This document shows positions 45,501 through 48,500 of a stretch of DNA of 64,000 bases, piece after piece. A program made the position numbers. Numbering within the stretch: position 1 is the first letter of the stretch; every line of letters starts with the position of its first letter. This stretch comes from Escherichia coli. GTDB lineage: Bacteria > Pseudomonadota > Gammaproteobacteria > Enterobacterales > Enterobacteriaceae. Where the stretch lies: assembly GCF_030013205.1 (NCBI RefSeq), contig NZ_CP122648.1, one strand, 5' to 3'.

Positions 45501-48500
45501 CATCCGGCAATTTAACCCATTATCAGAACGAGTAATTTACGCCGACACCTGCATAATGGAATTTATCGCTGTCGCCTTCGTCGTGATCCTGCCACTCAAA
45601 CGCGTATTCCAGCGAAACGGAAAGACCATTCTGGAAATCATAACCGTAAAATAACCCCACACGGTTAAAATCATGGCCTTCACGTTCAATATCATCCTGC
45701 CAGTCCCAGTTACTCCAGCGATCCAGCCCAATGCGCGTATACGGCGTCACCGAGTGGTTGCCGAGCGTCAGCGGCAAATAGGCATGAATTTCTTGCGTGG
45801 AAAACTCACCGTTATTGCGACTGTCGTCCATATTGAAGCCGCGCTCGAGATAATAGTTCACTCGCAAAGCAACCGTTTCGTTGAAGGTATATTGCAGACC
45901 TGTTTCCGTTTCGACTCGGGTATCAGCGTAACCGGTCGTGTTCAGATCGTTGGCAAATTTATACATCGATAACCAACCGTTGAAACGTAAATCGTCAGTC
46001 AGTTTCACATCCCAGTCTGGCGCGATTTTCCAGCGCTGCATATTCGCCGTGTCTTTACCCGGTTCATCAACGTAGTGATAACCATAATTACGGAAACCGC
46101 CGGTCAGCCCGAAACTGAAATCATCGCTTTCGAGGAACTGATAATGCACCTCCAGCTCCGGGCGATCAAACCACGTTCCACGTTTACCCGCGCTATAATC
46201 TACCGGCCCTTCCTGATAATAGGCCAGAGAAATTCTCCACGGCCCGTTGGCGGCATTAAAATAGACAGAAGGCTCCGCGAGCCCATCCATATCTTCGCCA
46301 TAACCCTCGACGTTTTCTATTTCGTACATCGCGCCGATATTAAAGTGCCAGTCGTTCTTTTCCTCGGCCTGTGCGCAAGCCATTCCCGCACACATCACCA
46401 GTGCGGTACAAGGTAATAATTTTTTCATTATTGTTCCTTGTATTATCCTGGGGGAATGCCTTCCCCCTGTATTTAGCGAATTGCTATTTCCATTTCTGCA
46501 TCAAAGAAATGACATTTAGTCATATCAAAATGAATAGTGATATTTTCTCCTGCATGATAATCATTTAACGCACCAGCACGGACCACCAGTTCGTGCCCCC
46601 CAACCGTGGTGTAGAGCATAAATTCAGCACCGGTTAATTCTGCCACGCTAATTTTGGCGGAAATGTTATTTTCCTCTTGCGCGTCCGGATGAATATCTTC
46701 CGGGCGTATTCCCATCACGATGGGCTTATGCAAACTTTCCTGTGTTTTCAGAACCGCTAATTTCTCTTCGGGAATGGTTAATTTAAGCGTTTCAGTAACG
46801 AATTTATCGCCATCGATCGTGCCGCGAATAAAATTCATCGCCGGTGATCCAATAAATCCGGCAACAAACATATTCGCGGGTTGGTTATAAACCGTTTTCG
46901 GCGCACCTACTTGCTGAACAATCCCATCCTTCATAATCACAATCCGCGTCGCCATGGTCATCGCTTCGGTCTGATCGTGGGTCACGTAGATCATGGTGGT
47001 GTTCAGTTTCTGATGCAGCTTGCTGATCTCTGCGCGCATTTGTACGCGCAGCTTGGCATCAAGGTTAGAGAGCGGTTCATCCATTAAAAACACGCCCGCT
47101 TCGCGCACAATCGCCCGCCCGAGCGCCACACGCTGGCGTTGCCCGCCGGAAAGCGCCCCCGGCTTGCGTTTCAGGTACTCTCGCAGACCGAGAATTTGCG
47201 CCGCCCAGTTCACCCGCTCATCAATCACCTCTTTGGCGATTTTTTGCATCTTCAGGCCAAACGCCATGTTGTCGTAAACCGTCATATGCGGATACAACGC
47301 GTAGTTCTGGAACACCATCGCGATATTGCGTGCTTTGGCTGGAACGTCGTTCATTCGTTTGCCGTCGATCAACAGATCGCCGCCGCTGATCTCCTCAAGC
47401 CCGGCAATCATGCGCAGGGTGGTCGATTTACCGCAGCCCGACGGGCCGACAAATACGATGAACTCTTTATCGGCAATTTCCAGGTTGAAGTCCTTCACCA
47501 CATGCACCTGGTTATCGTAGATTTTTTGAATATGTTGTAACGAAAGCTGAGCCATGTTGATTCCTTTGCTATACGTTTTGCCAGAAGGCCGATAACCGCG
47601 GCCAGGTGAGTGATTCCGTTGAGGGCAACAATAATTGCGCCCCGGTTAAGCCTGCGCCGATCCCCACCGAGCGCATACCGCTGGCGTTAATGGCGTCAAT
47701 GCCCGCCTGCGCATCTTCAATGCCGATACATGCCTGCGGCGGCACGCCCAGTCCGGCACAGGCGGCGAGAAAGATTTCCGGGTCCGGTTTCGAGTTTTTA
47801 AGTTGGGAAGCGTCCGCGCAGAAGGTGAAAAACTCACGCAGCTCCAGTGCATCTAAAATCGTCGGCGCATTGAGGGAGACAGAAGCCAGCCCTACCGGGA
47901 TCTGTTGTGCACGGAGATCTGTCAGCAAAGAGCGAATGCCGGGCAGCACAGCATTAACCGTCAGTTCGCGCAATGAATGGACGTAGAGCAGATTTTTGCG
48001 ATACGCCAGTTGCGCCCGTTCCTGTGGGTTAAAATCGCCCTCTTTACCCCCGTGTTGCAGAATGCGGCGCAGAGACTCATCGCGGCTGATCCCTTTTAGA
48101 GTTTCGTTAAACTGCGCATCAATGCTGATGCCAATTTCAGCGGCAATCTGCTGCCACGCCTGGAAATGCAGATGCGCGGTATCGGTGATTACTCCATCCA
48201 GATCGAAAATTACCCCTTGCAGTTTCATTCATTCTCCTGATGCGTGGTAGCGGTCCCATTGAAGGGCAAAATAAAATCACCCAAACAGAAAACAGATTCT
48301 TCAGCCACAGATATAAGCTGCCCGTTCAAACGCAGTGAAACGGGCGCAGAAGTTCGAATCGCAATACGCTGCGCGTCGAGAGTGACCTGTAATTCGCAGC
48401 CCTGCCAGAACAGAGGGAAAGACAACTGTTGCCACTGCACAGGTAACGCCGGATTCAAATTTAATTCACCGTCACGCACGCTCACCCCGGCAAAACCCTG

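Follow-up and report, generated by a model that had tools for sequence, protein, structure and literature searches.

Introduction

The best solved relative of YcjV, the ATPase of the Escherichia coli ycj operon, is MsmX from Bacillus subtilis (6yir; E = 8e-148), a multitask sugar-importer ATPase that has the same ABC plus OB/TOBE architecture and is 64% identical to YcjV (PMC7658222). The two differ in their genetic setting: the MsmX gene is an orphan, whereas ycjV lies inside a dedicated operon. Two further relatives, MalK (1q12 and others) and UgpC of E. coli itself, have the CUT1-type architecture and motifs in common with YcjV, but differ from it in their partners and substrate. An intact, non-K-12 form of YcjV (WP_000057985.1) was studied by Leisico et al. 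2020, and purified E. coli YcjV hydrolyses ATP (PMC7658222). YcjW acts as the repressor of the operon, ycjMNOPQRSTUV-ompG (PMC6599011).

Strain engineers routinely use K-12 ycjV as a neutral 'pseudogene' site for integration (PMC10380740), and laboratory-evolution tables also give the gene as a pseudogene (PMC4786092). The literature that we found joining ycjV with 'pseudogene' belongs to metabolic engineering and laboratory evolution only and does not discuss a physiological consequence; a literature search on ymjB, the second annotated piece of the K-12 gene, found nothing relevant.

Here, we describe the locus in a 64-kb stretch of E. coli DNA, analysed as a whole and hereafter called the window, which is base-for-base identical to positions 2719730-2783729 of NZ_CP122643.1 (E. 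coli ETEC4079, from pig faeces, Belgium). The intactness of the gene and its pseudogene status in K-12 are both already known, and in these respects the finding is correct but ordinary.

The ycjV gene and its product

In the ORF listing, ycjV is one ORF of 360 codons on the minus strand, with an ATG start and zero internal stops. The gene, its upstream signal and the motifs read from its translation are as follows:

46473..47555, minus strand: ycjV, intact; codes for the nucleotide-binding subunit of an ABC importer, YcjNOP-V (ORF, Pfam, NCBIfam, MsmX match and PGAP)
47561..47566, minus strand: Shine-Dalgarno-like AAGGAA, read from the sequence, 5 nt 5' of the ycjV ATG in the 13-nt ycjU-ycjV spacer
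Residues 37-44: Walker A, GPSGCGKS
Residues 82-85: Q-loop, FQNY
Residues 135-139: signature, LSGGQ
Residues 155-161: Walker B, VFLMDEP
Residues 163-166: D-loop, SNLD
Residues 192-194: H-loop, THD

From its sequence and position, AAGGAA probably functions as the ribosome-binding site. The six protein motifs stand in canonical order with the catalytic Glu in Walker B, as befits an ABC nucleotide-binding domain, and Pfam places ABC_tran (PF00005) at residues 21-162 with a score of 110.5 bits (cut-off 25). The ABC core is followed by OB_MalK (PF17912; residues 236-288, 54.9 bits) and TOBE_2 (PF08402; residues 282-351, 39.8 bits), both exceeding their gathering scores; this C-terminal pair is characteristic of CUT1 (MalK/MsmX/UgpC-type) ATPases, and the partners that such an ATPase should have, an SBP_bac_1 protein and two BPD_transp_1 permeases with EAA loops, are encoded in the same operon. 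The original prediction, that of an intact 360-codon ABC ATPase of MalK-like type with Walker A, signature and C-terminal regulatory domain, is therefore borne out by the single complete ORF, the motifs and the three Pfam domains.

Within the wider family, YcjV is a member of the UgpC-type subfamily (NCBIfam NF008653; 483.6 bits, cut-off 432), an assignment that is at the level of the subfamily and does not imply specificity for sn-glycerol-3-phosphate. We rejected YcjV as MalK proper: with 430.5 bits it falls below the 568 bits of the equivalog NF008233 and is a paralogue. The structures that match YcjV over its full length are those of MsmX, AlgS, MalK and SugC. In the case of MsmX, residues 1-360 of YcjV align end to end with residues 1-365, and therefore ycjV contains no hidden frameshift in comparison with orthologues, a point on which the intact reading could have failed.

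For the identical DNA in NZ_CP122643.1, PGAP likewise calls an intact CDS for an ABC transporter ATP-binding protein, WP_063085945.1; between the window gene and the intact non-K-12 proteins (WP_063085945.1 and the WP_000057985.1 referred to above) there is no difference of substance, and all are the same gene. Two plus-strand ORFs (85 and 133 aa) that lie over ycjV were taken as shadows of its coding frame. Very probably, then, the window carries an ordinary wild-type E. coli allele of ycjV, the product of which is the cytoplasmic nucleotide-binding subunit of a type I ABC importer for carbohydrates, similar to MalK, MsmX and UgpC.

The lesion in K-12

The window gene has ycjU and ompG as its neighbours within a collinear cluster, and K-12 has the orthologous locus with the same ycjU-ycjV-ompG synteny and 97.5% nucleotide identity. 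In NC_000913.3, however, it is annotated as two adjoining pseudogene pieces, ycjV (b1318, 1380821-1381789) and ymjB (b4524, 1381789-1381902), which total 1082 nt versus 1083 nt in the window. Global alignment of the window gene with K-12 ycjV gives 26 substitutions and a single 1-bp deletion on the K-12 side, at the following site:

46596..46601, minus strand: G6 homopolymer (C6 on the plus strand), gene nt 955-960, codons G319-G320; site of the K-12 deletion in the alignment with NC_000913.3

Here, at ~1381775-1381779 of NC_000913.3, K-12 has G5 in place of the intact G6 of the window, and ..VGGHELVV.. becomes ..VGGTS*: the K-12 product stops after 322 aa, native residues 321-360 (the last 40) are gone, and the truncation takes ~31 of the 70 residues matched to TOBE_2, roughly the second half of the domain, plus the tail. 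Both the annotation and the deletion uphold the statement, made with the original prediction, that K-12 ycjV is interrupted; the two loci do differ, the K-12 copy being broken and the window copy intact. The lesion is best read as a 1-bp slippage deletion within the G6 run, and, judging from the sequence, the truncation has probably cost K-12 YcjV its function.

When the K-12 frame is repaired, its product differs from the window protein at just two residues, A232S and M355T, and the codon differences between the genes amount to 2 nonsynonymous versus 23 synonymous. This imbalance points to purifying selection on ycjV, and is the signature that would be left by constraint on the full-length gene followed by a recent breakage in one lineage.

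Frequency of intact and broken alleles

Of 5426 complete E. coli genomes, 5001 gave a match to ycjV, which covered 80% or more of the gene in 4980. Alleles of the homopolymer were counted with two short queries, in each of which every 28-mer seed spanned the whole run and a flanking base: 4620 of the 5426 genomes have G6, and 371 have G5, the K-12 form. Intact ycjV is, therefore, the norm for the species and not peculiar to the window. The G5 genomes among the matches listed are almost all K-12 derivatives (MG1655, W3110, MC4100, C600, J53, XL1-Blue, BW2952), and every one of 36 sampled full-length non-K-12 matches has 1083 nt. As DNA, the window gene is a minor variant, since identity of at least 99% is found in only 19 of the 5001 genomes and the others lie at 95-99%. 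The exact window protein occurs on 291 public contigs; its 90%-identity cluster has 3686 members, and 14 of the 15 members listed have 360 aa.

The lesion falls within a homopolymer run, where a sequencing or assembly artefact might be suspected, such that K-12 would really have G6 or the window G5, and some of the non-K-12 G5 assemblies on unrelated haplotypes could indeed be long-read homopolymer errors. Nevertheless, the 371 G5 genomes were assembled independently and those listed are nearly all K-12 derivatives, G6 is found in the 4620 genomes mentioned above, and the window allele is identical across several independent porcine ETEC assemblies, so that an artefact is an exceedingly improbable source of the difference between K-12 and the window, which we take to be a genuine one.

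Outside K-12, G5 was seen on the ycjV haplotypes of 95-3192 (15 substitutions from K-12), EC6622 (21) and OkiPb01703 (5), and PGAP flags all three genes as frameshifted. These cases could reflect either recurrent slippage or homopolymer assembly error. Haplotypes outside K-12 with G5 thus number at least three, and slippage in the G6 tract might recur and turn the importer off in independent lineages.

Gene content of the ycj cluster

Over the ycj cluster, the window and K-12 form a collinear alignment of 16.9 kb with 96.6% identity. The neighbours of ycjV are listed below in order of position, with the product names of the enzymes (ycjT, ycjS/R/Q, ycjM and ycjU) following the RefSeq annotation of K-12:

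44474..45472, plus strand: ycjW, LacI-family repressor of the ycj operon, intact (97.3% to K-12 YcjW; Pfam LacI and Peripla_BP)
45523..46428, minus strand: ompG, which closes the operon and encodes a monomeric porin of the outer membrane (98.7% to K-12 OmpG over 301 aa; Pfam Porin_OmpG)
47569..48228, minus strand: ycjU (pgmB), beta-phosphoglucomutase (K-12 match and PGAP)
48225..50492, minus strand: ycjT, kojibiose phosphorylase, intact, 755 aa (ORF, K-12 match and PGAP)
50489..53413, minus strand: ycjS, ycjR and ycjQ, three intact genes for glucoside/guloside 3-dehydrogenases and epimerase (K-12 match and PGAP)
53444..55154, minus strand: ycjP and ycjO, which encode the pair of permease subunits (100% to the K-12 proteins; Pfam BPD_transp_1)
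55175..56467, minus strand: ycjN, substrate-binding lipoprotein with lipobox LISGC and Cys21 (K-12 match, Pfam SBP_bac_1 and N-terminus)
56482..58161, minus strand: ycjM, which opens the operon and encodes glucosylglycerate phosphorylase (K-12 match and PGAP)

The products of ycjM, N, O, P, Q, R, S, T and U, ompG and ycjW all align without gaps and at full length with the K-12 proteins, at 96.4-100% identity. The EAA coupling loops lie at residue 195 of YcjO and residue 174 of YcjP, and lipidation of YcjN has been reported (PMC11543891). With ycjV complete and all of the partner genes present, the importer is genetically complete; ycjV was predicted to complete a ycjM-V/ompG cluster with ompG directly downstream, and the binding protein, permeases, enzymes, ompG and ycjW are indeed all full length, with ompG on the same strand as ycjV after a 44-nt spacer.

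In the closest non-identical genome, CFSAN018748 (NZ_CP028192.1), ycjV is 100% identical and intact, while ycjT has an internal stop (in the equivalent of window 48225..50492) and a deletion of ~300 bp runs across the ycjO/ycjP junction (equivalent to window ~54230..54516). The lesion that inactivates the ycj cluster therefore differs from lineage to lineage.

Regulatory signals

Three sequence features of the operon, all on the minus strand, may bear on its expression:

58174..58187, minus strand: probable YcjW operator 1, TGGGACCGCTACCA, a near-palindromic 14-mer centred on CG, 12 nt 5' of the ycjM ATG
48245..48258, minus strand: probable YcjW operator 2, the identical 14-mer TGGGACCGCTACCA, within the 3'-terminal part of ycjT, shortly before ycjU
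46450..46467, minus strand: GC-rich hairpin of 7 bp, GGGGGAAGGCATTCCCCC, in the 44-nt ycjV-ompG spacer; same sequence in K-12

In the work of Luhachack et al., the ChIP peaks of YcjW fall at the same two places as the copies of the 14-mer (PMC6599011). Both copies are, therefore, probably operators for YcjW, an assignment made from their position at the ChIP peaks. The location of operator 2 within the ycjT coding sequence suggests separate control of ycjU-ycjV-ompG.

The hairpin between ycjV and ompG does not look like an obvious terminator, as on the coding strand it is not followed by a T-run; the sole terminator-like call in this spacer is on the opposite strand. On the coding strand around ycjV and ompG, a promoter scan gave no sigma-70-like site, and the total matches were fewer than expected from shuffled sequence; thus, there is no evidence for a separate ompG promoter.

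Proposed transport mechanism and substrate

By analogy with MalFGK2 and MsmX, a homodimer of YcjV would dock onto YcjO and YcjP, the permeases, at their EAA loops. The sugar would enter the periplasm through OmpG and be delivered to YcjOP by the lipoprotein YcjN; on arrival of loaded YcjN, the YcjV dimer would close on two ATP, and hydrolysis would then reset the transporter. The C-terminal OB/TOBE domain of YcjV would provide a dimer contact and, possibly, a means of regulation. Once imported, the glucoside would presumably be degraded by the co-transcribed phosphorylases YcjT and YcjM, the guloside-to-glucoside enzymes YcjQRS, and YcjU. As noted above, YcjW represses the operon as a whole. 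We infer both the formation of a complex between YcjV and YcjNOP and its mode of transport from these analogous systems; our literature search found no YcjV-dependent uptake and no YcjNOP-V transport assay in any strain. In B. subtilis, YcjV is unable to replace MsmX (PMC7658222), a failure that shows the partner specificity of YcjV and is silent on YcjOP.

It was also anticipated that the importer may function in the uptake of kojibiose or related glucosides. The genetic completeness of the system accords with this expectation, but kojibiose is a candidate substrate only: YcjN was not thermally stabilized by kojibiose or by the other sugars tested (PMC11543891), although, as the same authors point out, an absent thermal shift does not prove absent binding. 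We consider the chances to be evenly balanced that the complete importer serves a substrate other than kojibiose, namely, glucosylglycerate, a guloside/glucoside or a derivative of kojibiose, in which case an intact ycjV would give no growth on kojibiose. Besides the behaviour of YcjN, such a substrate would fit the presence in the cluster of a glucosylglycerate phosphorylase and guloside-converting enzymes, and the conclusion of Luhachack et al. that the natural inducer may not be kojibiose (PMC6599011). Set against this, YcjT is a kojibiose phosphorylase, and kojibiose at 0.5-1 mM frees YcjW from operator DNA in vitro (PMC6599011).

Possible consequence of the truncation in K-12

MG1655 does not grow on kojibiose minimal medium, and deletion of ycjW brings no improvement, according to the report on YcjW (PMC6599011). 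Studies of the ligands of YcjN name YcjV as the ATPase of the importer and leave the K-12 lesion unmentioned (PMC11543891), and in the ycj literature we found no report that ties the failure of K-12 to grow on kojibiose to truncated YcjV. The 1-bp frameshift in ycjV might, unrecognized so far, account for the inability of K-12 to use kojibiose or the true ycj substrate for growth, also when ycjW is deleted; we regard this explanation as tentative, and on balance unlikely, because the substrate of the ycj system is uncertain.

A different view would be that the intactness of ycjV is without physiological effect: truncated K-12 YcjV might still work, or another ATPase of the MalK/UgpC type might energize YcjOP. 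The K-12 lesion leaves the ATPase core (residues 1-235) as it was, and E. coli MalK and UgpC are partly interchangeable, both of which favour this view; in MalK, however, the C-terminal beta-barrel holds the dimer together, and the loss of ~31 of 70 TOBE_2 residues plus the tail in K-12 YcjV probably destabilizes that barrel. MsmX-type ATPases are able to serve several importers, but the exchange of ATPases across species failed (PMC7658222). Given also the apparently strong purifying selection on full-length ycjV, we find it doubtful that its loss would be of no consequence.

Should the frameshift be the explanation, wild strains that have the cluster in full, the porcine ETEC4079 among them, could import and use the ycj substrate. 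A note of caution would also apply: the ycj physiology that we found in the literature comes from K-12, in which the ATPase is truncated, and negative growth results in K-12 may not represent the species. The appropriate background in which to search for the substrate would be a wild strain, or K-12 with the missing G restored.

Other features of the window

Elsewhere in the window, a 768-bp IS1 at 9885..10652 is flanked by a 9-bp target duplication, TAACCCGCG (9876-9884 and 10653-10661). Its insertion point is the exact 5' end of the gene for the MicC sRNA (micC, 9767..9882, minus strand; Rfam, 107.8 bits), and the element puts ~777 bp between micC and its native promoter; CFSAN018748 is without the insertion. 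The porin gene ompN (10885..12018, plus strand), which diverges from micC, is flagged as a pseudogene by PGAP; an internal stop (..INLLD*DDSF..) interrupts it ~25 codons short of the normal end. Damage thus affects ompN as well as micC in this strain.

A second IS1, at 36749..37517, is 100% identical to the first, inverted, and located at the 3' end of a gene for an SDR-family oxidoreductase, the CDS of which has 627 nt in the window versus 639 nt in CFSAN018748. The inverted copies bracket ~26 kb and could support an inversion; comparison with CFSAN018748 revealed none between them. Three further genes in the window are pseudogenes:

18992..20446, minus strand: DHA2 MFS efflux permease, frameshifted (identical RefSeq record)
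34116..35015, minus strand: pgrR, internal stop (identical RefSeq record and window translation)
38553..39517, minus strand: ycjG (L-Ala-D/L-Glu epimerase), frameshifted (identical RefSeq record and window translation)

The genes uspF and ttcA adjoin at 12159..13704. In K-12, the Rac prophage sits between these two genes; in the window strain, the Rac site appears to be empty. Finally, two sRNA genes were found in their expected neighbourhoods at the Rfam gathering threshold:

15471..15588, minus strand: FnrS sRNA (134.8 bits)
22454..22549, plus strand: McaS sRNA (112.8 bits)
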